A stretch of DNA of 64,000 nt from Planctomycetota bacterium. Lineage in GTDB: Bacteria > Planctomycetota > UBA11346. The stretch is from positions 13,765 through 77,764 of the forward strand of contig JBBRLJ010000028.1 of NCBI GenBank assembly GCA_038231435.1, given 5' to 3'. The position numbers and the translations under genes are program-made. Positions within the stretch are counted from its first letter, which is position 1; every line of letters starts with the position of its first letter. Under the pieces are notes generated by a model. That model was given only the letters and a program-made list of their open reading frames with translations, ran no database searches and was not told where the DNA came from. Shown here piece after piece: positions 8,679-40,168 of the stretch.

Positions 8679-9719
8679 CTAACCGACCGCCGCTTCCCCA
8701 TCTGTCGGATGCACTCGTGAGCGGTCAACGATCCATTTCACCCCGCGCCGCACCGCTTCCTTCGCTCGCGCCAGGGCACAGCCGATCGCCGACCCTCCGA
8801 AGCGGCCACCCATCGACATCGCGTCCCTCCATCGCCCGAGATCGAGTTCCAGGCGGGCAAGGATCGGCGACAGGTACGTCGGGATCGCTCCTCGTTTCCC
8901 GATCCGCACGATCCGCCCCGTCTGGTCGACCAATTCCAGGTAGTCGTCGGTCGAGAGTGGGCACGGGCACAGCCGGCTCGTCTTGTCGGACCAGGGCGTG
9001 CACGCCTCGAGCGGAGCCAGCCATGATTGGACCAGCGGTGGATCTGCTGGCGTCGGGATCGCTCCGCTATCGACGAGACGCGCGCCGGCCTTCGCCATCT
9101 GACGCTCCTCGATGCGTCGCTGAATGCTCGTCAACTCGCTCGATTCGGGACGATCGGCTTGCCGCGCTCGGATCAGATTGAGATCCACGTATGCCATGCA
9201 GGCGATCACCGCCGCCTGATCGAGCAGCGACACCGACGTGAAGCGCCCTTCCCAGAAATGGCCGGTGCAACGGTCCTCGCGATTCGCCCGCCGGGCGATG
9301 CGCTCCTTCATCACCTTCATGAACCACGACAGACTCGACAGGCGGGCCCGATGCTCAGAGACCCATTCCGCATCCGCCGCCTTGCCGTCGAGCCAGCGCA
9401 GATCCGGTGGCTTCGGATTCCCGTCGTCGTCCTTCAGCGGGAACATGACCGCCCAGCGCTCGGCCACCTCGCGACCGGACCACCTCGCGGCGCGGTCGGG
9501 ATGGACCTTCATCACCAGGTGGAAGTGATTCGACATCACCGCGTAGGCGAAGATATCGACGGCGAATACCGTCGCCTGCTCGCGAACGGCTGTTTCGATC
9601 CAATCTCGACGATGCGCCCATTGATCACTGCAGAGGAAGGAGCGACGGACGCAGCGGCTGATGACGTGATAGCAGCCAGGTTGCGTCTGGTCGATCAGAT
9701 GCGAGCGGGCAGTCGTCAT
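8679..9719 (-). mobile_element. REP-associated tyrosine (HUH/Y1) transposase, RAYT-like
   Basis: YHVISRCVRR, YAVMSNHFHLV (HUH), GHFWEGRF, ACMAYVDLN. Confidence 0.9.
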
Positions 9720-9763
9720 GAGCACGGGATACGGGATGGATTATGAGATTGGCGTGAGAACAC

Positions 9764-9781
9764 ATGCCTGTCCTAGGATTT
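9764..9781. repeat. Inverted copy of the RAYT flank motif (ATGCCTGTCCTAGGATTT)
   Basis: Its reverse complement matches AAATCCCAGGACAGACAT at 16 of 18 positions. Confidence 0.7.
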
Positions 9782-10730
9782 GTGTGCCGAGCGATTCATC
9801 GCCGTTCAGGACGGGCAGGTGAAGGTGACGACGATCCAGAAGTACCACTGCCACATTGGCTACTGGTTCACGGTCATCACACCGGGGTCGTCGCCGGCGA
9901 GCCTGACAGCCGAGAGCTTGCAGCTGGCCAGGAATGCACTGGTCAAGCGCATGTCGCCCGTGACGGCGAACTGCGCGCTCTCGACCCTCAAGCGGATCCT
10001 GAACTTCGCCTTCTTGGAGGGCTGGCTGACCTCGTCACCGTGGAAGCGGGTAAAGAGCCTCCCAGAGCCCGACTTCACGTCGAGCTGGTGGACGCCGGAA
10101 GAGGTGGCGGTGGCCCTGCGAGTCGCAGGGCAAAACCAACACCAGCCCACGGCCACCCTGATGATCGTGCTCGGCTGCATGCTGGGGCTGCGCAAGGATG
10201 AGATGGTCAACCTCCGCTGGCAGGACCTGCTGCTGGACCGGCAGGACGAGGCGACTGGAGAGCCACGGCCGGTCTGCCATATCCGCTGTGATGCGGAGTG
10301 GCGGCCCAAGTCGGGGAAGGCGCGAGACCTCCCGATCCCACCGCAGGCACGTGGCATCCTGCTTCCGCACCGCAAGGCTTCCGGCTACGTCCTAGTGGAG
10401 GAGCGGCGGGTGGCGAAGCGGGGCGGCACCAAACGGGTGTACCGATATGACCCGGACCGGGTTTGGGATCGGATCCGGTCCAAGTGCATCGCTGCAGGCG
10501 CGAAGCGCATCCGTTTCCACGACATGCGGCATTCGTATGCGTCCATCTTGCTCGACCAAGGCTTCAGTGCCGAGAAGGTCGCCCGATGGCTCGGGCACTC
10601 GGACACGCGCATGGTCTTCGGGGTCTATGGGCATCTGCTCGCATACGACGAGCAGATTGAGGGCGTAAAGTTCACGCGCAGCGCGCAGCCTGACGACAAG
10701 CATCTCCTGCGCTTCCCGACTCGCAGCTGA
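9780..10730 (+). pseudogene. Tyrosine recombinase/phage-type integrase, probably 5'-truncated
   Basis: GLRKDE (R), KSGK (K), FHDMRHSYAS (HxxR), LGHS, VY; no ribosome-binding site, and the frame starts at the RAYT flank repeat; points toward the 3' end of tRNA-Asp. Confidence 0.75.
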
Positions 10731-10806
10731 TACAACTTGCCATGAACGACGTCGTTTGCCGTCCGGAGATCCCGGGCGGCGAACGCGTTTTCTTTACCTA
10801 TGAGGC

Positions 10807-10870
10807 GTTCGCCCGGATGGGCGAACAAAGGGCGAAAATGGGCGAACAACGCTGTTAACTTGTTCGCCCA
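10807..10870. repeat. Clustered TGGGCGAACAA repeats (putative integrase arm-type sites)
   Basis: Direct copies at 10818, 10830 (variant) and 10839; inverted copies at 10860 and, partially, 10807. Confidence 0.65.
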
Positions 10871-10871
10871 C

Positions 10872-10911
10872 AAAAAAGAGGTCGCGGTAACTTGCGCTAC
10901 CGCGACCCTTT
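10872..10911 (-). terminator. Rho-independent terminator of the tRNA operon
   Basis: GGTCGCGGTA/TACCGCGACC stem followed by a T-run on the minus strand. Confidence 0.8.
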
Positions 10912-10914
10912 AGA

Positions 10915-10991
10915 TGGCGACCTGGATGGGACTTGAACCCACGACCTCCGCCGTGACAAGGCGGCGCTCTAACCAACTGAGCTACCAGGCC
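10915..10991 (-). tRNA. tRNA-Asp(GTC)
   Basis: Cloverleaf with anticodon arm CCGCC-TTGTCAC-GGCGG, GGTTCAAGTCC T-arm and 3' CCA. Confidence 0.97.
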
Positions 10992-11033
10992 ATGATGTGA
11001 AAGAGACCTGAGCCGATCCGAATGTCGACGCCC

Positions 11034-11110
11034 TGGTAGGCGATGAGGGATTCGAACCCCCGACATCCTCCGTGTAAAGGAGGCGCTCTAGCCGACTGAG
11101 CTAATCGCCC
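11034..11110 (-). tRNA. tRNA-Val(TAC)
   Basis: Anticodon arm CCTCC-TTTACAC-GGAGG, GGTTCGAATCC and 3' CCA. Confidence 0.97.
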
Positions 11111-11424
11111 CTTTACTGGAGGGTTGCGGATTATGACTGTGGCATGTGCATGGCAAGGGGAATAGAGTTTCAACATGCTGTGTGGTTCGGGATTAGAGAT
11201 GGGCTGGTCGAGCTGGCTCCTTGCGGGGCCGCTTCTCCTAGGATCGGGATGAAGGCCCTCAATCACCAGGCGTAGATATCACCAGGCGTAGGGCGTAAAG
11301 AGTAACTCTCCTTTCACACCGCTTTCACACAAAGCCTTCAGATTCAGGCGCAAACCAGCAGCCACACAGGGCCGAGACCGCATGGGATCCATGTCAGCAG
11401 CATCGCACCGGACGGAGCCCACCC

Positions 11425-22674: not shown

Positions 22675-22738
22675 GAGACGGAAGAGGGAAGAGGATATAG
22701 AGGAGGCGCGGTTTCTGTGGGGCTCTCCTCGAATTCGT

Positions 22739-22807
22739 GATCGTAGCGAACGTGCTCGCAGTCAAGGCCGATCGGCGGGGCGCCGATCGCCGCGGGGGAA
22801 CCGCGGT
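22739..22807 (+). repeat. Structured element copy D (5' half only)
   Basis: GATCGTAGCGAACGT..TCAAGGC, a hairpin with a GGG loop, then CCGCGGGGGAACCGCGGT; aligns with copy A at 31089. Confidence 0.7.
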
Positions 22808-22828
22808 TCGCAGCTCGAATCTCTGCAT
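22808..22828 (-). pseudogene. 7-codon remnant of a four-helix-bundle gene (MQRFELR)
   Basis: AAGGAG ribosome-binding site plus ATG directly after element C, as in the intact genes (MSRFERL, MTKIHELR). Confidence 0.5.
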
Positions 22829-22851
22829 GTCGTTCTCCTTGCGCCCCACCG

Positions 22852-22939
22852 CGCGATCGTCCTCGGGGTCAAGGCTGGCCGCCCCGGCCACCGCGGCCCC
22901 CGCGGCCCGGCCTTGATGCCGAGGACGATCGCGACAATC
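22852..22939 (-). repeat. Structured element copy C
   Basis: GATTGTCGCGATCGTCCTCGG..CAAGGC..CCGCGG..CCGCGGTGGCCGGGGCGGCCAGCCTTGA..GACGATCGCG; closely matches copy B. Confidence 0.85.
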
Positions 22940-23168
22940 ACGCCACCGGGGAGAACGCCCACAAAACACATGCCGTCCAGCTGTCCTCGAGCCCTCGAGC
23001 TTGCTCACCTTCGAGCCTTCGAGACTTCACCTTCGACGTCCGGCGTCTGCCCCCCCCCGCTCTCGCCTACCGACGACAACCAACAACGGACATTTCATCC
23101 CAGTCCAAAAAACAAACACGCGCGAGGCAGAGCCCCGCGCGTGTCCACCGTTCACTTCGACGCGTCGA

Positions 23169-29430: not shown

Positions 29431-31023
29431 GTGACCGTGGATTCCACAGCGATCGCCTACCATCACGCGACCAAGTACGCTCCCGAGACCATCGGCAACC
29501 ATCCGGGGCTCGATTGGGGCCGGCAGCCGGTGCCCTACAAGGCCTACGACAGCCTCACGCCGATCGAACTCGCCTCGTACCTGCCCTTCGATCCGAATCC
29601 GTTCACCGGCAAGGCCCGCGCCGATGAGGGCGAGCCGCGCGATGGCGCGGTCGAACTGAACACCGTGAGCCGCTGGCTGTTCGCCAGCTACGGCATCACC
29701 GGCGTCATCCCCAACCAGCCGCGGCCCACCTACCTGCGCGCCGCGCCATCGGCCGGCGGACTGTATCCGGCCGAGGCCTACCTGGTGGTGCGCGACTGCG
29801 CGGGCTGCGAACCTGGCCTCTATGGCTACGACCCGCGCCGCCACCGCCTGGTGCCGCTGTGGGACGATCCCGACGTCGCCAAGCATCTCGCCGCAGCCTG
29901 CTTCGACGATGCGGCGATCGCCGCGGCCGGCGTGGCGCTGGTTGTCACCGGCGTCTTCGAGCGCAGCCGCTGGCGCTACGGCGAGCGCGCGTACCGGCGC
30001 ATCCTGCTCGACAGCGGCCACCTGCTCGGCAACGCCTGCCTGATGGCGCCGGCGCTCGGGCTGCGCGCGAGCCTCACCGCCGCCTTCTGCGACGAGCGCC
30101 TCGACGAGCTGCTGCGCCTCGATCCGGATCAGGAAGGCGCGCTGGCGGTGGTCGGATTGAACGTGCGCGGCCCGGCCGAGCGCCCGCATTGGAGCGCGCT
30201 GCCGAGCGCGCGCGTCGCTCCGCCGGACCTCAGCGCGGCAACCGACGGGAACAGCGACGCGCCGCTCCTGCACGCCCTGCACGCCGCAGGCCGCCTGCCC
30301 TCTGAGCGCCCCCGCCTGATCCCGCGTGGCGAGGAGCTCTCCGAAGGACTCGAAGCCCGTTACGGTTGGACCGGTGGCACGACTATCGCCCCGGATTCCA
30401 GCGGTCAGGGCGGCGGCGTGCCCGGCGTGGCCTGGGATGGCGGTGCGCTCGGCCGCGATCCGTTCCACGCCATCCTCCACCGCCGCAGCACGCGCCGCTT
30501 CCAGCGCGGCACCATGCGCCGCGAGCAGCTCGCGCGCGTGCTCGCCGCCGCGTACGCGCCCGAGACCCACGGACTCGGCGAACAACCCGCGATCGACCGC
30601 AACCACCTCATGACCTTCGTCGCCGTCGTCGATGTCGAAGGCCTCGACGCCGGCGTCTATTACCTCGCTCCCCACGGCCTCGAGCTGCGCCTGGTGCGCC
30701 CCGGCTGCTCGCGCGAGGCGCTGCAGTTCCTCTGCCTGGGCCAGGAACTCGGCGGCGACGCGACTGCGGTGGTCTTCCACACCGCCGATCTCGAGGAGAC
30801 GGTGAAGCACCTCGGTGATCGCGCGTACCGGTATCTGCATCTCGATGCGGGCATGATCGGCGAACGGCTGGACCTCGCGGCCTTGGCCGAGGGATGCGGG
30901 GCGAGCGGGATCGGGGGATTCTTCGATGATCAGGTGACGGATCTGCTGGGGATACCGAGGGAGCAGGCGGTGGTGTATGTCACGACGTTGGGGTTGCCGC
31001 AGGAGGCGGGGGGAGAGGAGTAG
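29431..31023 (+). CDS. SagB/ThcOx-family double nitroreductase-domain protein
   Basis: YHHATKY, LRAAPSAGGLYP, WRYGERAYR..LLDSGH; second domain RRSTR..GDRAYRYLHLDAG..SGIGGFFDD. Confidence 0.9.
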   Translation: MTVDSTAIAYHHATKYAPETIGNHPGLDWGRQPVPYKAYDSLTPIELASYLPFDPNPFTGKARADEGEPRDGAVELNTVSRWLFASYGITGVIPNQPRPTYLRAAPSAGGLYPAEAYLVVRDCAGCEPGLYGYDPRRHRLVPLWDDPDVAKHLAAACFDDAAIAAAGVALVVTGVFERSRWRYGERAYRRILLDSGHLLGNACLMAPALGLRASLTAAFCDERLDELLRLDPDQEGALAVVGLNVRGPAERPHWSALPSARVAPPDLSAATDGNSDAPLLHALHAAGRLPSERPRLIPRGEELSEGLEARYGWTGGTTIAPDSSGQGGGVPGVAWDGGALGRDPFHAILHRRSTRRFQRGTMRREQLARVLAAAYAPETHGLGEQPAIDRNHLMTFVAVVDVEGLDAGVYYLAPHGLELRLVRPGCSREALQFLCLGQELGGDATAVVFHTADLEETVKHLGDRAYRYLHLDAGMIGERLDLAALAEGCGASGIGGFFDDQVTDLLGIPREQAVVYVTTLGLPQEAGGEE

Positions 31024-31088
31024 GGAGGGGATAAGGGGAAGGAGCGGAGAGCGGAGAGCGGAGTTTACTACCGTTTCTCGCTTCACTC

Positions 31089-31192
31089 GATTGTCGCGAT
31101 CGTCCAGGCTGGCAAGGTCGGCGGCCGGGGCGGCCTTGCCGCGGAGGAACCGCGGTGCCGGGGCGGCAACCTTGACAGCCTGGACGATCGCG
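31089..31192 (+). repeat. Structured element copy A (candidate ncRNA/cis-element)
   Basis: Perfect 17-bp outer stem CGCGATCGTCCAGGCTG/CAGCCTGGACGATCGCG plus CAAGGT/ACCTTG, enclosing three small hairpins. Confidence 0.85.
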
Positions 31193-31216
31193 TGCCGGGG
31201 GTGAAGGAGAAACATC

Positions 31217-31570
31217 ATGAGCAGATTCGAACGACTTCTCATCTGGCAGCGGGCGCGCGAGGTGCGGATCCTGTTCCGCGACTGCACCGCCACCATGCGC
31301 GACGCAGTTCTCAAGGATCAGATCCGCCGCGCAGCGCTGTCGGTCATGGCGAACATCGCCGAAGGCAGCGAGCGCGCCACGAACGCCGATTTTCGCCGAT
31401 TCCTGGCAATGGCGCACGGTTCGTGCGGCGAACTACGCAGCCACCTGGTCGTAGCGCTGGATGACCACCTGGTCGATGACGCTTTCTATCTCCACCTCAA
31501 CACCAAGCTCATCGAGCTCGGCAAGATGATCGCCGGCTTCATGAAGGCGCTCGCGCGAGGCGGCGGGTGA
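31217..31570 (+). CDS. Four-helix-bundle protein (23S rRNA IVP / TIGR02436-like)
   Basis: FERLLIWQRA..LKDQIRRAALSVMANIAEG..FRRFLAMAHGSCGELRSHL. Confidence 0.93.
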   Translation: MSRFERLLIWQRAREVRILFRDCTATMRDAVLKDQIRRAALSVMANIAEGSERATNADFRRFLAMAHGSCGELRSHLVVALDDHLVDDAFYLHLNTKLIELGKMIAGFMKALARGGG

Positions 31571-31632
31571 CCGCCGCCTCCTGCACTCCGCTGTCTCTCT
31601 CTTTCTGCTTTGAGCTGTCCGCTCCCCCTCTC

Positions 31633-31980
31633 TCACCCACTCAAGCGGATGATGAACGCGCTGAGCATGCGCCGCACATAGTCGATGCGCTCGTCGAGCT
31701 GATCGAAAACGGACGTTTCCACATATCCCGCATTGCATGCGATCGCCAGCTGCGCCTGCAGCTCGCCAGCCGAGCCACGGGCCATGGTCAAGAATCGTCG
31801 CAGCTCGGTGTCGCTCCTGTGCCCGGCGCCTTCCGCGATATTCGACGCGATCGATACCGCCGCGCGCCGCATCTGATCGCGCAGCCCGCACGCATCGCGC
31901 ATCGATTCGGTGAGTTCGCGCACGGTGCGGACTACTGCGCGCGCTTCGTGCCACACTCTGAGTTCGTGGATCTTCGTCAT
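31633..31980 (-). CDS. Four-helix-bundle protein (23S rRNA IVP / TIGR02436-like)
   Basis: ELRVWHEA..LRDQMRRAAVSIASNIAEG..RRFLTMARGSAGELQAQL; AAGGAG ribosome-binding site. Confidence 0.93.
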   Translation of the reverse strand: MTKIHELRVWHEARAVVRTVRELTESMRDACGLRDQMRRAAVSIASNIAEGAGHRSDTELRRFLTMARGSAGELQAQLAIACNAGYVETSVFDQLDERIDYVRRMLSAFIIRLSG

Positions 31981-32003
31981 CTTCTGTCTCCTTGCGCACA
32001 ACC

Positions 32004-32092
32004 CGCGATGGGCATCGGGGTCAAGGCTGGCCGCCCCGGCCACCGCGGTTCCTCCGCGGCATGGCCTTGACGCCGATGACGATCGCGACAAT
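32004..32092 (-). repeat. Structured element copy B
   Basis: ATTGTCGCGATCGTCATCGGCGTCAAGGC..CCGCGGAGGAACCGCGG-TGGCCGGGGCGGCCA-GCCTTGACCCCGATG..ATCGCG. Confidence 0.85.
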
Positions 32093-32158
32093 GGGAGCTA
32101 GGAGACTGAGAATTGGGATAATCCGGAGATGGATGGATCCGCATGCCGATCTACCGCG

Positions 32159-32316
32159 ATCCGACATCCGGGATCCGACGTCCGCTATCCGCCCTCCGCT
32201 GTCCGCTGTCCGCTGACAACTGACAACCGACAGCGGACAGCATCGAAGGCGAGAAGGTAAGAAGGTAAGAAGGTAAGAAGGTAAGAAGGTAAGAAGGTAA
32301 GAAGGCGCGAAGGCCT
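32159..32316. repeat. Heptamer array ((A/G)TCCG..., GACA...) followed by octamer array GAAGGTAA x6
   Basis: About 12 heptamers at 32159-32242; six perfect GAAGGTAA at 32253-32300 plus three GAAGGC variants. Confidence 0.9.
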
Positions 32317-32387
32317 GCCGGACTCCTACCGGGCGCTTGCCGCCCTCCCCTCTTCCCCCCGCCCCCTCTCCGCTACCCTCCCCTCCC

Positions 32388-33216: not shown

Positions 33217-36200
33217 CTACTCGCGCTCCCTGATCCTCGCCTCGATGAATAACATGATCACGTCGTCGCGGTTGAGATCGAGGCACGACCGGTAGTCAGC
33301 CAGGGCCTCCTCGGTCTCGCCACGGCAGTCGTGCTTGAGCGCGCGCGCGAATGGCAGCATTTGGCTCGCGATCACCGAGTACGGCTGGGCGAGGAAGCCC
33401 TTTTCATCGATGTCGCCGGCGATGTACGAGGCGAGGTACCACAGACGCTGACCGTAGACGTAGCGTTGGTGATCGATCACGGGACGCAGGCCGTTGGTGG
33501 CGTCGACGGTGCGCCCGAACAGCACCGGCATCATCACCGGCAGCAGGTAATGGCTGAACATGGTCATGTCGTCGGTGTGGTCGGGCGGGATCTGGGCGAG
33601 GTGCTTGACCAGATCGGTGCCGGCGACCTCGTCGCCGTCGCGGATCAGGCACATGGCAACGCGATGGAGATCAGCCGGATCGAGCGGGCGGCGCGACAGG
33701 AGCTGGCGGTAGCGCCCCAAGGCGATCAGGGCGTCGCCCGGCTGGTCCGGATACTCCTCGAGCAGTTCCTGCCAGCGTTTCATCGCCTTCAAGGCCCGGT
33801 AGCGAGGAGCCAGCTGCTGCGGAGAGCGGTCGCCGTCATGCGGATTGGGGTACATCTTCAGCAGATCCTCGACGCGCCCGCAGTCGATCAGCGTGTCGGG
33901 GAGGCGGATGTCGGCCGGGAACTCCTTGATCAGCCGATCGCAGTCCTTCTTCGCAATCAGGGTTTCGACGAGCTGCACCGGGTCGAGCCTCGGCCGCAGT
34001 TCGGCCCTGCCGCTCTCCTTGATCACCGCGTGCACCACCGACTGCACGTACGGATGCTTGTCGATCACCTCCTGGAAGCGGCCCATGGCATAGAGGGCCG
34101 AGGCCGAAAAGAAGTCGTCGTAGCGGTACCATTCGTAGATGAGATCGGAGCGCCCGAGCATCCTCAGGACCGGGATGCATGCGGTAATGAACGGATTCAG
34201 GCGCAGCGAGACACCATAGGCGTCCGACAGCCGATGGAGCTCCCGCTGGACCACCGAGATGCGTTCGACGATGTCATCGGGAAAGGTGCGCGAGGTGAAA
34301 TCCATCAGCGGCTTTGGCACCAGCACCTGCAGGTGCCGGCGCGCATAGTCGACCATGGTGCTGCGCAGGATGGGATGACCCTTGAAACGGGCCAGGTCCT
34401 CGCGCAGGCGCGAGGCCTCCGCCTCGTCGCCCTGGTCGGCGGCGGCGACGCTGCGCGCGTGCAAGGACAGCGGGATCGTCTCGTCGTCGGGGAATTGCCG
34501 CTCGAATTCCTTGAGCTCGGCGACTCCGGCCTGGGTATCGCCCAGGCGCAACGCGCACACCGCGGCCTGGTAGCGCGCGCCGCCTTCGAGATCGGTTCCC
34601 GGATAGGCCTTGGCGATCTCGAGGAACTGCGCGCGCGCGTCTCCGAGCTTGCCGACCTGCATCAGCTTGTTGCCCACCGCCAGCGGTGAGATGCGTTGCG
34701 CGAGCGGCTGGATGAGCAGATGCAGGTTGCGGGCGGCGACGCAACTGCCGCCCGCATAGGTGTCGAGCCCGAAGCGCGTGGCGAGCGGCATCTCGTCGGA
34801 TGCGAGAACCGGATAATCGATCAGCGTGCGGCCATCCATGATCAGCCGCAGGTGCTGGTGATTGCGCTCGAGCGTGAACTGGTAGTAGCGGCCAAGGGCG
34901 ATGGGATGGCGCATCGCGCCCTCGGCGAGCAGGTTGTCATAGCCGCCGTGGGTGAGCAGCACGGTGGTGCTGCGGCCGCCACCGACGTGGAAGGTGAAGC
35001 CGGCTTCGCGATTCTCGCCGATGAAGCAGTTGAGGTCGCGGCCTTCGCGCACCGACATGTACTCCCATTCGACGCGGAAGTCGCCCGCAACCGGCTCGCG
35101 CCACACCAGGTCGACGTAGTCGGTGGTGCTGGTGAGGCGGACCGCCCCATCGACCACCGCCACGCGGGGATCGTCGTTGGGAATCTGCGCGAATGGCATC
35201 GGACCATCCGCCTTCTTGGCGAGGCGCGACCAGCGCAGATCGATCGCGGCCGGCGTCCCGGTGAAATCCTCGGCCGCGACCTCGACCCACAGCGCGCGTT
35301 CGCGTTCGCGTTCGCGCCACATCTCCCCGAACGCGAGCAACGCCGCGACAAGCGCAGCCGCGGTGGCCAGGAAGGCGCGCGGATTCGCGCGGTACCAGCG
35401 CAAGAGCATCTTCAGCGGGGGGTCGCGGTAGACGCTCACGCGCCTGCCGGCCTGGAAGGCGCGCAGATCCCCGAGGAGCTCCTCCACCGACAGGTAGCGG
35501 TTGTTCGGCGTGGCCGCCAACGCCTTGAGCGCGATGCGCAGGATCGCGGCCGGCACCGCGCGCCGCTCCTCTGCGGTCGGCAGGTCGATCTCGCCCGCTC
35601 GCTTCTTGATCCAGAAAGGCTCGGATTGGTCATGCCAGGTCGGCGGGCGCAGGAACAACGCGTGGAAGAGCGATGCGCCGACGCAGTAGACATCGCTGCT
35701 GGTGGTCGAGCCTTCGAGACGCGCCTGCTCCGGGCTCATGTACAGTGGTGTGCCGTAGAGCCGACGCCGGCTGTCGCCGATGCGCGTGGCGCTGCCCCAG
35801 TCCACCAGCAGCACCTCGCCGTAGGCACCGAGCATGATGTTGTCGGGCTTCACGTCCTGATGGATCACGCCCTTGTGGTGAGCGAAGGCCAGGGCCTGGC
35901 AGACCGCGATGAAGACGTTGACGATGCCATTGGCCTCGGCCAGCTGCTCGGGCCGGTCGCCTTTCACCGCGCGCTCGATGCCCGCGCCCAGCGAGCTGCC
36001 CTCGATCTTCTTCATGCTGAAGTACGGGCGGCCCTGGTCGGTGACGTCGATGTCGTGGACCGGCAGCACGTTCGGGTGGGTCAGGGTGGCGGTGATGCGC
36101 GCTTCGTCGATGAAGTTGTCGATGTCCTCGTCGGCATCGTGATCCTCGCCGAGCACCTTGATCGCCACTTCGCGATCGAGGCTGCGATCGGCGGCGATGT

Positions 36201-36393
36201 ATACCTGGCCAGAAGCGCCGACACCGGCGACCCGGCGTATCTCGAAACGGTCGGCGGCCTCGGCCCGGCCGAGCCGCGAGCGCAGATCGGTTCCCGACAG
36301 ATGCGGCGGGGCACCTTCCACCACGCGCGCGCGCGGACGTGGTGCGTCGAGATCGACCGTGCGGCGCAGCTCGTCGGGATCCTGCGTGCTCAT
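33217..36393 (-). CDS. Membrane Ser/Thr protein kinase with a beta-sandwich domain and TPR-like C-terminus
   Basis: GVGASG, VAIK, HPNVLPV, HQDVKPDN, VDWG, GTPLYMSPEQ; TM; helical repeats. Confidence 0.88.
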   Translation of the reverse strand: MSTQDPDELRRTVDLDAPRPRARVVEGAPPHLSGTDLRSRLGRAEAADRFEIRRVAGVGASGQVYIAADRSLDREVAIKVLGEDHDADEDIDNFIDEARITATLTHPNVLPVHDIDVTDQGRPYFSMKKIEGSSLGAGIERAVKGDRPEQLAEANGIVNVFIAVCQALAFAHHKGVIHQDVKPDNIMLGAYGEVLLVDWGSATRIGDSRRRLYGTPLYMSPEQARLEGSTTSSDVYCVGASLFHALFLRPPTWHDQSEPFWIKKRAGEIDLPTAEERRAVPAAILRIALKALAATPNNRYLSVEELLGDLRAFQAGRRVSVYRDPPLKMLLRWYRANPRAFLATAAALVAALLAFGEMWRERERERALWVEVAAEDFTGTPAAIDLRWSRLAKKADGPMPFAQIPNDDPRVAVVDGAVRLTSTTDYVDLVWREPVAGDFRVEWEYMSVREGRDLNCFIGENREAGFTFHVGGGRSTTVLLTHGGYDNLLAEGAMRHPIALGRYYQFTLERNHQHLRLIMDGRTLIDYPVLASDEMPLATRFGLDTYAGGSCVAARNLHLLIQPLAQRISPLAVGNKLMQVGKLGDARAQFLEIAKAYPGTDLEGGARYQAAVCALRLGDTQAGVAELKEFERQFPDDETIPLSLHARSVAAADQGDEAEASRLREDLARFKGHPILRSTMVDYARRHLQVLVPKPLMDFTSRTFPDDIVERISVVQRELHRLSDAYGVSLRLNPFITACIPVLRMLGRSDLIYEWYRYDDFFSASALYAMGRFQEVIDKHPYVQSVVHAVIKESGRAELRPRLDPVQLVETLIAKKDCDRLIKEFPADIRLPDTLIDCGRVEDLLKMYPNPHDGDRSPQQLAPRYRALKAMKRWQELLEEYPDQPGDALIALGRYRQLLSRRPLDPADLHRVAMCLIRDGDEVAGTDLVKHLAQIPPDHTDDMTMFSHYLLPVMMPVLFGRTVDATNGLRPVIDHQRYVYGQRLWYLASYIAGDIDEKGFLAQPYSVIASQMLPFARALKHDCRGETEEALADYRSCLDLNRDDVIMLFIEARIRERE

Positions 36394-39300
36394 GGCTGAA
36401 TAGAAGCCGGCGCGAGCGCCGACAACCGCCACGCGATGAATTCGTGGTATACGGCGGGGAAGCGCCCGCCCATGGACGCATTGGCGAGATCGTAGGCCGC
36501 TTTCGCCGCGGCGTCGTGGCCTAGGCAGTCCTCGCGCAGGGCGATGCCGAACTGGAGCAGCCAGCCCGTGTAATGCCGGCAGGGCTGGAGCGCGAACTGC
36601 CGTTCGTCGATGCGCCCCGTGACCAGCGCCGCGAGGTGCCAGACGCGCTGGTTGCACGACCAACGGTGGCGCTCGAGCACCGGCGCGAGCGCCTTGGCGG
36701 CTTCCGTGCCCGAGCGGCGCCCCAGCAGCATTGGCATGAGCGGCTGGACCAGGAAATGCGGCATCCAATCGGTGGAATCGGCGTCCGGCTGGGCGTCCGC
36801 CAAGCGGGCGAGCAGGCCGCGGGCCTTGATCTCCTGGCCTTCGGCCAGCCACCTAAACGCGACCCGGTACATCGCGATCGCATCGCCGGGGACGCGGGCG
36901 ACCAATTCGTCGTGGCGCCGCAGCCCGAGCATGGCGTCGATCTGGCAGCCGGCGTCGGGATACCGGTCGAGGATATCCTGGTAGGAGTGGCGCGCGGCGA
37001 GCACGCGGTAGCGCGGCGTCTGGAAGGCCTGGTTGCGCGTCGCGTCGTTCTCGGACTCGGCATGGCGCGCGAGGAACTCGTCGTATTTGCCCTCGGCCAG
37101 CAGCCGGTCATCGAGGTCGTAGTCCGGGAAGCGCGCACGCAGCCTCGCCTGGTCCCCGAGCTCCACCAACGCGATGGGGATGCGCCAGCTGCCGTATGGA
37201 TCGTCCGCCACCTCCTGGTATCGGCCCTGGAACAGCATCGAATCCATACGCACGACCAGATCGTATGGAGCGCGCGCGATCGCCTCGTCGTATCGCCCCA
37301 TCGCCATCAGTGCCCTGGCGCACACGCGATCGGAATGGGGATAGTCGGCCAGCACCAGATCGGCGCGCCCGAGGCGGGTCAAGAGCGGCGCGGCCTTGTC
37401 CATGAACGGATCGTTGTGCAGCGGTATGCCGTAGGTGTCGGCCATGCGGCTCAGCTCGGCGTTGGTCGCGCTGATGCGTTCGATGGCGTCATCGGGGTAG
37501 TTGTGCCCGCCCACCTCGGTGGTTTCATGCCAGGCGATCGACGGCAGACGGTCCGCCGCCATGTCGGTGAGCACCGCGTTGAGCACCGGGTGCCCCCGAT
37601 ACGTGCGCAACGCCGCGCGCAGCCGGTCGACGTCGGCGGCGGCGCCGGGTGGCGGCTCCTTCGACGAAGCCGCCGCGCGCGCGGCCAACAGGCGTTCATA
37701 GAGCGACACTGGGACCATTTCGTGTGCCGGGTGTTCCGCCTCGTATGCAAGCAACTGCGCCAGGCCCTGAGCCTTGTCGACCGAGCGCAGGGTGCTGAGC
37801 GCCCGCTCATAGCACGCCGACCCCGCCAGGACGGTTCCTGGGTACGAGCGCTCGATCTCGTGGTACTGCCGCACCGCTTCGTCGACCTTGCCGGCCTGGT
37901 ACAGCCGGCGTCCCACCTCGAGCGGCGAGATGCGCTGCGGCAGCGGCCGATCGAAGACCCGCACATGCTCGATCGACTGGGCATTGCCCGCGTAGCAATC
38001 GAAGCCGAAGGTTGAGGTGGTCTCGGAATTGAACGCGTCGAAGTCCTGGTAGTCGAAGACCATCGCGCCGTCGATCGACATGCGCATGTGCCGACCGTCC
38101 TTCTCCATCACGTAATGGTACGGCTTGGCGATGACCAGCGGGTGGACGATGAAGCGCTGGTCCACGACCTTGAAGTACGCGCCCTTGGTCATCAGCGCGT
38201 AATGCGGATCGCCGTACGCGCCGACGTGGAAAGTGAAACCCTTCTCGCGGTCCGGTCCGATGAAGCAGTTCAGGTTCTGGTTGGCCCGCTCGCAGGTGTA
38301 ATCCCATTCGACGCGGAAATCGCCATGCAGCTCCTCGCGCCATACCAGATCGACGTACTCGCGCTCGCTCGCCAGGTGCATGCGGCCGCCGGAGAGCGTC
38401 CAGCGCATTCCGGTCGACAGCGGAATCTCCGAGAACGGCAGGCCGAAGGCGTCCGCGGATTTGGCCAGGCCGCGCCAGCGCGTCTCGAGTCCGGCCAGGG
38501 TGGCGTGCGCGAAATCCTCGTCTGCCACCGGCATCCAGCTCGAGCGCTCCTTGGACTTCTCCATCGCGAACACGCCGATCAGCGCGACGACCGCGCACGC
38601 ACCCGCCGCCGCGATCCAGAACGGCTTGCGGTTGTGGCGATACCAGCGCGAGAGCAGCTGCCACGGCGAATCGCGATGCGCGCTGACCGCCAGCCCGGCC
38701 TGGAAAGCCTTCAAGTCGCGCAGCATCGCTTCGACGGACGAATATCGGGCAGACGGTTCCGGCACCATCGCCTTGAGCGCGATTCCCAGCAGCGGCGCCG
38801 GCACGCGCTTGCGCTCCTCCACGGTGGGCATGTCGATCTCGCCACGGCGCTTGCGCGCCATCAACTCCTCGCCGCCATCCGCCCACGTTGGCAGGCGCCG
38901 CATCAGCGCGTGGAAGAGGCTCGCGCCGACGCAGTACACGTCGCTCAGCGCGGACACGCCCTCGAGGCGCGCCTGCTCGGGACTCATGTACAGCGGCGTG
39001 CCGTAGAGCTTTGGCGGGGCTCCCTCGGTCGCACGGATCGCGCTGCCCCAATCCACCAGCAGCACCTCGCCGAAATCGCCGAGCATGATGTTGTCCGGCT
39101 TCACATCCTGGTGCACGAAACCCCGGTGGTGCGCGTACGACAACGCCTGGCAGACGCCGATGAAGACGCTGACCACCGCGTTCGGGGTCGCGAGCTGCTC
39201 GACCTGCTCGCCGAGCGAGTAGGCCTCGAGCGCGCGCCCGAGCGAGCGGCCCTCGATCTTCTTCATGCTGAAATACAGGCGGCCGTCGCGCGTGGCTTCG

Positions 39301-39764
39301 ATGTCATAGACCGGAAGCACGTTCGGATGCTGGAGCGACGCGGTGATGCGCGCCTCGTCGATGAAGGACTCGACATTCTCGCGATCGCCTGGCCGCGACC
39401 GCTCGAGCAGTTTCACCGCCACCTCGCGCCCGAGATTGCGGTCGATCATCGCGTAGACGCACGAGGTGCCGCCGACACCGGCGAGCCCGCGCAACTCGTA
39501 GCGCGCGCCGTCCACTCCGGCCCGCTGATGACCGAGATCGCGCAGGCGCGAGTCGAGATCCTGGCCACCGAGGTCGGGCGGCGAGCTCACTCGATCCGGA
39601 TCGAGCGCTGGTCGACCGGCCTCGCGGGTGACGCCCTGGTCGCGGACGGCGCGGGACGGGTCAAGCTGGAACGGCGGATCCGCTCGTCGCGTCGCGCCGC
39701 CGGCGCGCGGAGCGGCCTCAGGCGTGGCAGCAGGGGTGGCGGAGGTGGGCGGCTGCTCGGCCAT
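36390..39764 (-). CDS. Membrane Ser/Thr protein kinase (paralog of the adjacent kinase)
   Basis: Same motifs and architecture; the stop overlaps the start of the downstream kinase. Confidence 0.88.
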   Translation of the reverse strand: MAEQPPTSATPAATPEAAPRAGGATRRADPPFQLDPSRAVRDQGVTREAGRPALDPDRVSSPPDLGGQDLDSRLRDLGHQRAGVDGARYELRGLAGVGGTSCVYAMIDRNLGREVAVKLLERSRPGDRENVESFIDEARITASLQHPNVLPVYDIEATRDGRLYFSMKKIEGRSLGRALEAYSLGEQVEQLATPNAVVSVFIGVCQALSYAHHRGFVHQDVKPDNIMLGDFGEVLLVDWGSAIRATEGAPPKLYGTPLYMSPEQARLEGVSALSDVYCVGASLFHALMRRLPTWADGGEELMARKRRGEIDMPTVEERKRVPAPLLGIALKAMVPEPSARYSSVEAMLRDLKAFQAGLAVSAHRDSPWQLLSRWYRHNRKPFWIAAAGACAVVALIGVFAMEKSKERSSWMPVADEDFAHATLAGLETRWRGLAKSADAFGLPFSEIPLSTGMRWTLSGGRMHLASEREYVDLVWREELHGDFRVEWDYTCERANQNLNCFIGPDREKGFTFHVGAYGDPHYALMTKGAYFKVVDQRFIVHPLVIAKPYHYVMEKDGRHMRMSIDGAMVFDYQDFDAFNSETTSTFGFDCYAGNAQSIEHVRVFDRPLPQRISPLEVGRRLYQAGKVDEAVRQYHEIERSYPGTVLAGSACYERALSTLRSVDKAQGLAQLLAYEAEHPAHEMVPVSLYERLLAARAAASSKEPPPGAAADVDRLRAALRTYRGHPVLNAVLTDMAADRLPSIAWHETTEVGGHNYPDDAIERISATNAELSRMADTYGIPLHNDPFMDKAAPLLTRLGRADLVLADYPHSDRVCARALMAMGRYDEAIARAPYDLVVRMDSMLFQGRYQEVADDPYGSWRIPIALVELGDQARLRARFPDYDLDDRLLAEGKYDEFLARHAESENDATRNQAFQTPRYRVLAARHSYQDILDRYPDAGCQIDAMLGLRRHDELVARVPGDAIAMYRVAFRWLAEGQEIKARGLLARLADAQPDADSTDWMPHFLVQPLMPMLLGRRSGTEAAKALAPVLERHRWSCNQRVWHLAALVTGRIDERQFALQPCRHYTGWLLQFGIALREDCLGHDAAAKAAYDLANASMGGRFPAVYHEFIAWRLSALAPASIQP

Positions 39765-40168
39765 GGGATCCTGGAAGCGTCGGGAAGCACGCCGCGAGGA
39801 GGATACCGCATGCGCAGACGGAGTGATCAGCGGGAGCGGGGACGGCCTGGCGGGTAGCGCAGACACGGGCGGCCTGCGCGACTCACCGCCTCGGCGGAAC
39901 AACGGGATGCACGCGGGAGCGCGGGACGAGCCGCTGGCGTCGCCCGCCTGCCCACCGCTCGATCGCACGGTGAGGTATGGAAGCGCTTCCAGGAGGCAGG
40001 TTCATCCTCGCGCTCCCCTCGTCGGAAGAGCCTCGATGCACTGGGAACCCACCCACAGGGGGGCGTGGCGTGACGAAAAGTCGGCTAAAACGGGGCGAAA
40101 AAACCTCCCTCGGAAGGGCTAACGACCGTACCGCCTTGGCCCGCAGTAGGTAACACACCCGTCGAGAA

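Follow-up and report, generated by a model that had tools for sequence, protein, structure and literature searches.

Single-stranded DNA (ssDNA) promoters have been described for conjugative elements only, as far as the available text of the cited literature goes (PMC12672017, PMC11541004, PMC9849209). On plasmids they act before second-strand synthesis, according to the available part of PMC9849209, and they include Frpo and ssi (class 1), the klcA and ardA promoters (class 2), and the M.EcoGIX promoter (class 3). On the protein side, comparable systems are Xcc0516 (PDB 2GSC) with the 23S rRNA intervening-sequence (IVS) proteins, and Avd of diversity-generating retroelements (DGRs; PDB 4DWL, 8UB7), a basic pentamer that binds DGR RNA in the available text of two reports (10.1101/2023.10.23.563531; PMC10053308). 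Folded intergenic DNA that is dispersed through a genome is found in REP/REPIN-RAYT systems and attC cassettes.

Here, we analyzed a pair of convergent genes in a Planctomycetota genome (G000), located in a stretch of 64,000 nucleotides that is referred to as the window. At this locus, a small dispersed cassette is present twice, head to head; it is made up of a heptamer array, a hairpin leader, and an Avd-like four-helix gene. A literature search, carried out largely without subscription journals, returned no description of a unit combining such a leader with a four-helix gene. In its available text, PMC10910872 names the four-helix family only in a legend, and a text search of the available part of PMC4679880, which deals with intergenic heptamers, found no mention of four-helix proteins.

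Architecture of the convergent cassette

The cassette lies between a SagB-type nitroreductase gene and xth. Its features, together with a related remnant in the same window, are listed below.

31001-31061: purine-rich arm containing the left heptamer array, an imperfect complement of 32340-32387
31042-31063, + strand: GAGCGGA x3.1, left heptamer array at the outer edge of the unit
31073-31212, template strand -: element A, hairpin leader of gene 1, read as a candidate ssDNA promoter
31110-31115 and 31090-31095, - strand: candidate -35 (TTGCCA) and -10 (GACAAT) of element A, 14-nt spacer
opposite 31193-31199: bubble in the fold of element A, which also has a three-hairpin head and an outer arm paired with the Shine-Dalgarno (SD) sequence
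31204-31209, + strand: SD of gene 1, AAGGAG; predicted transcription start at or just before it
31217-31570, + strand: gene 1, TIGR02436/PF05635 four-helix bundle, 117 aa, 'delta' type; truncated partner copy on contig C62
31571-31632: pyrimidine-rich spacer separating the convergent stop codons; no intrinsic terminator called
31633-31980, - strand: gene 2, TIGR02436/PF05635 four-helix bundle, 115 aa, 'gamma' type; C62 copy 85% identical
31985-32106, template strand +: element B, hairpin leader of gene 2, read as a candidate ssDNA promoter
31988-31993, - strand: SD of gene 2, AAGGAG, paired with 32100-32105
32067-32072 and 32087-32092, + strand: candidate -35 (TTGACG) and -10 (GACAAT) of element B, 14-nt spacer
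32107-32241: flank common to element B and three more copies (C62, C73, and the start of C25), with inverted TCCGCTG/CAGCGGA heptamer arrays at its end, where between-copy similarity stops
32180-32215: GTCCGCT x5.1 array
32213-32232: CTGACAA x2.9 array
32252-32305, + strand, within the feature 32245-32316: AGAAGGTA x6.8 octamer array
22693-22986: gene-less deletion derivative of a second convergent cassette

Gene 1 scores 94 bits against PF05635 and 93 bits against TIGR02436, while gene 2 scores 102 and 99 bits; all values are above the curated cut-offs, and the two proteins share 36% identity. The structure model of gene 2 (pLDDT 96) has a TM-score of 0.93 to Xcc0516, on which its four long helices superpose, and of 0.81 to Avd. 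By analogy with 2GSC and Avd, the four-helix protein is probably a basic pentamer like Avd; the window proteins show a slight basic excess only.

The proteins resemble Xcc0516 and the IVS proteins in family cut-offs, in fold, and in the heptamer arrays that flank other members of the family too. Unlike the genes of 23S rRNA IVS proteins, the window genes lie outside 23S rRNA, and they belong to a subgroup with a hairpin leader. With Avd they share the fold (TM-score about 0.8) and a small, slightly basic nature, but the identity is 13% and no reverse transcriptase (RT) was found in the genome. The window proteins are fold relatives of Avd and not a DGR component. More specifically, the RT profile RVT_1 has no match in the element carriers G000 (88% complete), G002, G013, and G020, and a DGR was rejected as the identity of the locus on the result for G000.

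As DNA, both elements fold far better than shuffled sequences (z -10.7 for element A and -8.9 for element B, with 0/200 shuffles as good). The 15-mer ATTGTCGCGATCGTC is present at 31090-31104 (+) and 32078-32092 (-); it has six occurrences in the 5.2-Mb genome, every one inside a hairpin element. The original prediction had described two convergent four-helix-bundle genes, each behind an AAGGAG, with structured elements, 7/8-mer arrays on both flanks, unrelated neighbors, and no transposase or RT within the cassette, and all of this is confirmed here. Its delimitation of the unit had to be revised. The elements had been taken to start at GATTGT; they reach about 17 nt further out, where an arm pairs with the SD. 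They had also been regarded as inverted ends of a unit of about 1 kb. Each element instead belongs to one gene as its leader, relatives mostly carry single element-plus-gene units, and the shared flanks continue for about 130-150 nt into the heptamer arrays.

A linear scan of the window cassette revealed no sigma-70 promoter or terminator. Rfam covariance models gave no match near the gathering score in the window and 20 related loci, and the Rfam radC motif, considered as the identity of the leader, was rejected in the absence of a covariance-model match at the gathering score.

The surroundings of the elements have a composition of their own. Outside the elements, the sense strand is rich in G and poor in C, both at window 30860-31023 and over about 400 nt outside most elements, with a mean GC skew of +0.16 to +0.25 compared with about -0.04 further off. 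In the last 55 nitroreductase codons, C occupies 22% of third positions versus 49-60% in seven orthologues, and low third-position C at ORF ends was seen in 11/97 cases near heptamer arrays versus 35/2439. The G-rich skew around the elements may build the long purine/pyrimidine arms that flank the unit. Elsewhere in the window, two adjacent long minus-strand ORFs (33217-39968) appear by eye to be Ser/Thr kinase-like with repeat tails.

The hairpin leader as a candidate single-stranded DNA promoter

Read on the folded template strand, the leader presents TTGAC, 14-15 nt, and (T/G)AnnnT, and it most likely works like a plasmid ssDNA promoter, a reading that we regard as probable and that the original prediction did not raise. 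The -35 and -10 are rebuilt in the hairpin, and the gene-facing duplex lacks a -10. A-11 and T-7 at a 14-nt spacer, with pairing up to -12, were found in 18/18 elements of the genome (18 of 19 entries). The -10 ends 5-10 nt before AGGAG in 17/18 of them, so that the predicted transcript begins at the SD without the anti-SD arm. The position -12 is paired in 37 of 41 distinct elements before four-helix genes. In the same set, 40 elements have A-11, with pairing in 1, and 39 have T-7, with pairing in 3. The bubble, spanning -11 to -7, is positioned where the open complex melts.

The two strands of the element differ in several respects. TAnnnT at a spacer of 14-16 nt is found on the fold-back arm in 30/71 rows and on the gene-facing arm in 0/71, among GTDB matches listed and picked by stem pairing rather than by the -10. 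In 44 heads, 38 stem-closed C-GNA-G triloops were counted on the template strand versus 4 on the sense strand, and 28 heads of other contexts gave 27 versus 0. Across 58 sequences, pairing in the 20-pair stem amounts to 95%, with 13 pairs changed on both sides and 0/500 shuffles reaching its score; the element sequences are related, so that counts are not independent and the covariation is inflated.

Part of this structure may also be read at the level of RNA. The hairpin would then be a 5' RNA leader hiding the SD, with the Avd-like protein binding the internal loop for control of its own translation, or as an RNP copied by an RT in trans, an explanation that we judge unlikely. Folding is as good for the sense strand as for the template (standard DNA energies favor the template strand in 21/44 elements only), the SD is paired in nearly all copies, and the protein has the fold of Avd, a DGR-RNA binder. 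Furthermore, at two conserved positions the RNA strand forms a U.G wobble where the template strand has an A.C mismatch (40/41 and 30/41), which favors an RNA fold. However, an RNA leader leaves the opposite-strand -35/-10, their fixed spacing, and the template-strand GNA triloops unexplained. The same core also stands before ArdC, KlcA, and DUF932 genes, where the fetched flanks contain no four-helix gene, the wobble is T.T or G.G in 5/24 non-four-helix copies, and RVT_1 has no match in the four carriers named above. An RNA role, hiding the SD and silencing read-through, can coexist with the promoter role.

Promoter-like sites were detected at 18 of the 56 tRNA calls of the genome, 20 sites in total, with a spacer of 16 nt in 12, 15 nt in 5, and 14, 17, and 18 nt in one each. 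Housekeeping promoters of this genome appear to use a 15-16-nt spacer and not 17, as at window 11110-11200 (-). The short leader spacer fits this host better than E. coli. Typical elements have a spacer of 14 nt on the non-template arm and 15 nt on the template arm, and both window elements have 14/14. This perfectly paired 14-bp spacer is one base below the usual range of the host, and the family-typical GA/GCA internal loop has been lost from both window elements; for these two reasons they may be weaker or decaying. In G069, a genome of another family, 3/3 elements have 3 extra bp in both arms and lack 2 further along, and they retain TTGAC-15-TAnnnT before the same four-helix gene family.

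The left arm could alternatively be an ordinary double-stranded promoter that points outward and produces antisense RNA, with the hairpin being secondary. The bottom strand does carry TTGAC-14-(T/G)AnnnT as one uninterrupted sequence, and short spacers are in use in the host. Even so, we regard this as very improbable: the stem covaries up to -12 and then opens, which is needless for a linear promoter, 14 nt is under the host optimum, and the SD and the gene are on the opposite side.

The reading as an ssDNA promoter was suggested by the genes found behind the same core elsewhere. A GTDB pattern scan, of which only well-paired matches were kept, located the leader core in other phyla without the four-helix gene. 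A four-helix gene lies downstream in 8 of the 123 matches listed, and many of the others are chance matches; among the matches listed, the GTDB records with the same element and a four-helix gene are labelled Planctomycetota. Pfam-named, SD-led ORFs after the core encode ArdC (L111, L117), DUF932 (L107, L128), a KlcA-type antirestriction protein (L175), and a methylase (L132), while 15/28 non-four-helix GTDB elements among the matches listed have no SD-led ORF downstream, some owing to a short flank. The core was also found before radC on two plasmids, one of them with the core upstream of kleA and ardC. Genes of the ArdC, KlcA, DUF932, RadC, and methylase types are typical of plasmid leading regions, and their presence behind the core pointed to a promoter that is active on single-stranded DNA.

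At further loci in Acidobacteria and Proteobacteria (L105, L151, L187, L201, L203, L220), the hairpin core adjoins transposase-like genes. It stands in front of the gene at L187 and at the 3' ends of the others, and Pfam confirmed L105 only. Expression of the transposase at such loci is possibly triggered by ssDNA.

We compared the leader with plasmid promoters using a covariance model built without plasmid sequences. Its best match in 16 kb of the F leading region falls in the DNA methylase leader (E 0.008, weak), and in pESBL (43.5 kb) the methylase leader is tied for best (E 0.61, weak); these methylase-leader matches have a poor -10, GAAAGC. A class 3 ssDNA promoter has been mapped by 5' RACE upstream of the methylase gene and is conserved in F, according to the available text of PMC12672017. 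Judged by position only, the F/pESBL match would correspond to this mapped class 3 hairpin. The cassette leader and the F methylase leader have a GCAG-NN-GTC...GAC-NN-CGAG core in common, and the published Frpo sequences share, by eye, a GCAG-NN-GTC...TGGAC arm pattern (available part of PMC11541004). The F klcA leader, the promoter of which is assigned to class 2 in the available part of PMC12672017, reads TTGCAT-15-TAAGAT, with a similar geometry and the same bubble. The covariance model did not match Frpo1/2, ColIb-P9 ssi, or the klcA promoter, and blastn of element A against plasmids was set aside with chance-level matches only.

Taken as a class, the plasmid ssDNA promoters and the cassette leader share a long template-strand fold-back that rebuilds the -35 and -10, an SD end paired with the far arm, and a short non-template spacer (15 nt in F klcA, and 15-16 nt in several candidates in the available text of the published work). 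Unlike the plasmid promoters, the cassette leaders are chromosomal and dispersed, with one Avd-like gene downstream and often in convergent pairs. Their loci lie between ordinary chromosomal genes, and inspection of the neighborhood showed no oriT, relaxase, or leading region.

Dispersal of the cassette in the genome and its relatives

The cassette is genuinely dispersed, as is evident from its copy number, from empty sites, and from decay products, in line with the dispersed unit that had been predicted. The genome contains 17 PF05635 matches, of which 16 are full-length genes, all preceded by the same type of hairpin leader. A profile search yielded 24 clear element matches: 16 before full genes, 6 deletion derivatives, and 2 at contig ends. 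Six convergent gene pairs were found (C28, C62, C13, C34, C25, C50). Pairs combine unlike paralogue types, and a given combination is found again at unrelated sites, where the proteins are 76-87% identical. Between gene 2 and its C62 copy there are 13, 6, and 39 differences at first, second, and third codon positions, so that the protein of gene 2 is under selection.

Inverted elements persist after the loss of one or both genes (C6, C47, C14, and window 22693-22986). In the window derivative, a half element (+) is joined to the first codons and full leader of the second (-) gene, and on C14 two left halves are fused at a common CCGCGG hairpin. A tandem duplication of the central CCGCGG hairpin within one element was observed at G000:C6:15265-15300. 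Similarity between copies passes the element and fades within the heptamer arrays. Counting arrays with periods of 5, 7, or 8, the genome has 167 clusters, of which 17 lie close to an element; arrays related to the AGAAGGTA octamers also occur at other intergenic sites. The repeat arrays accompany the cassette without being specific to it. No target duplication was seen by eye at the copies, which were compared without a close empty allele. Contigs from four DNA runs, in which rare forms are dropped, contain no joint that removes or circularizes the cassette. One back-joint in the X5 contigs, from 32215 to 31044, is best read as the heptamer flank of another copy.

Empty sites between the nitroreductase and xth, which had been named as a check, were found. 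The nitroreductase is present in nine relatives, with xth in the fetched flank of three, and the four-helix gene is there in 0/9. The nitroreductase and xth genes overlap in G004, are separated by a short spacer in G011, and have a different gene between them in G001. The cassette is thus not fixed and syntenic, since it is absent from the orthologous site of relatives.

Across 48 genomes of the family, PF05635 has 0-30 copies per genome. The strict element pattern is present in 19/48, of which 18 carry PF05635, with up to 35 matches per genome, and a reversed control pattern gave 0. In a sample of the phylum under strict filters, 4/141 genomes match the model (G000, two more family members, and G069). 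Many copies in relatives are lone element-plus-gene units between inverted arrays. Close element pairs are all convergent and number 10 in G000, 8 in G061, 2 in G060, and 1 each in G045 and G019, with fragmented contigs possibly hiding partners in the relatives.

A hairpin leader precedes 55 of the 70 proteins examined (53 by rule and 2, L048 and L063, by eye). Of the 15 leaderless proteins, 14 fall into two separate tree groups, most with inverted heptamer arrays only. The tree of the 70 proteins features genome-specific expansions and weak support for a single origin of the leader-bearing group. A second PF05635 group without a hairpin leader (L078-L087, L041) is flanked immediately by inverted heptamer arrays and is often located within operons.

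Inverted pairs, gene-less derivatives, and empty sites would also be expected if the elements were transposon-like ends (REP/REPIN, MITE, or attC-like) that serve an HUH transposase or an integron integrase in trans, with the genes as cargo. The genome does encode one Y1 transposase and one integron integrase, and the hairpin heads carry GNA triloops, which may resemble those of ssDNA substrates. Single units are common, however, the shared sequence extends past the elements, and the true attC of the genome differs in sequence and contains AAC/GTT boxes. No IntI turned up in 7/19 pattern-positive genomes, and the Y1 gene (8679-9725) has short flanking repeats of its own, unrelated to the element, with no element beside it. 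Transposon-like ends are therefore improbable in our assessment. Of the enzymes for which a genome search had been proposed, an HUH gene does exist in the form of this Y1 gene but is unlinked, and no RT was found in G000. RVT_1 (33/48 family genomes) does not track the element (19/48), and neither does IntI (30/48).

Two named candidates of this kind were rejected. An integron attC does not apply, as the element is 5' of the gene, has no RYYYAAC...GTTRRRY boxes by inspection, and differs from the true attC on C17. A generic REP/REPIN was dismissed on the grounds that the elements are tied to one gene family and the Y1 gene is unlinked. The elements do resemble REP/REPIN-RAYT and attC cassettes as dispersed, intergenic, folded DNA with inverted doublets and gene-less derivatives; they differ in their tie to one gene family, their position 5' of a gene with an SD, and the lack of R boxes and of a linked transposase or integrase.

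Two further regions of the genome were observed. Window 8679-11090 carries a RAYT-like Y1 transposase (-) back to back with a tyrosine integrase (+), beside tRNA-Asp and tRNA-Val, and is probably an island end. At L238 (G000:C17:106635-108500) there is an integron whose IntI scores above the cut-off; it holds one AT-rich cassette and an attC and lies 2.5 kb from a single four-helix cassette.

A model for expression and spread

Returning to the leader as an ssDNA promoter, its action may be pictured in steps. In the computed fold, the single template strand pairs with itself such that one arm would provide TTGAC and (T/G)AnnnT as non-template and the other arm would be the template. Pairing is predicted to stop at -12, leaving A-11 to T-7 in a preformed bubble, with the SD/anti-SD helix as downstream duplex. 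Host RNA polymerase would then start at the SD and produce a short-leader mRNA without the anti-SD arm. In double-stranded DNA, the gene-facing TTGAC would have no -10 and read-through RNA would fold over the SD, so that the gene would be off. A convergent pair would place a promoter and template on each strand, and one paralogue would be made from either single or entering strand. In the last and weakest step, about which we are doubtful, the protein might bind the single strand while DNA is taken up or transferred and help the unit to insert into intergenic heptamer arrays, with no transposase encoded in the unit itself. A ComEC homologue is encoded in the genome, which makes DNA uptake a possible source of single strands.

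As a speculation that we hold still more loosely, the cassette may represent a class of transposase-free mobile genes that sense their own single-strandedness. Such a gene would have captured a plasmid-type ssDNA promoter and be expressed only while the cassette travels as ssDNA, through uptake, transfer, or as an excised strand. Its product would insert the cassette into intergenic heptamer arrays, which it may itself generate, with convergent pairs having evolved repeatedly for strand independence.

The candidate promoter is short, about 130 nt, and one oligonucleotide is enough for testing. The plasmid-type leader family would extend to Acidobacteria, Planctomycetota, and several Proteobacteria, where it precedes anti-restriction and methylase genes. 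For the TIGR02436 proteins, which are very common and unexplained, the leader would provide the first concrete clue to the timing of their expression. If the reading is true, bacteria keep chromosomal genes that respond to their own DNA being single-stranded.
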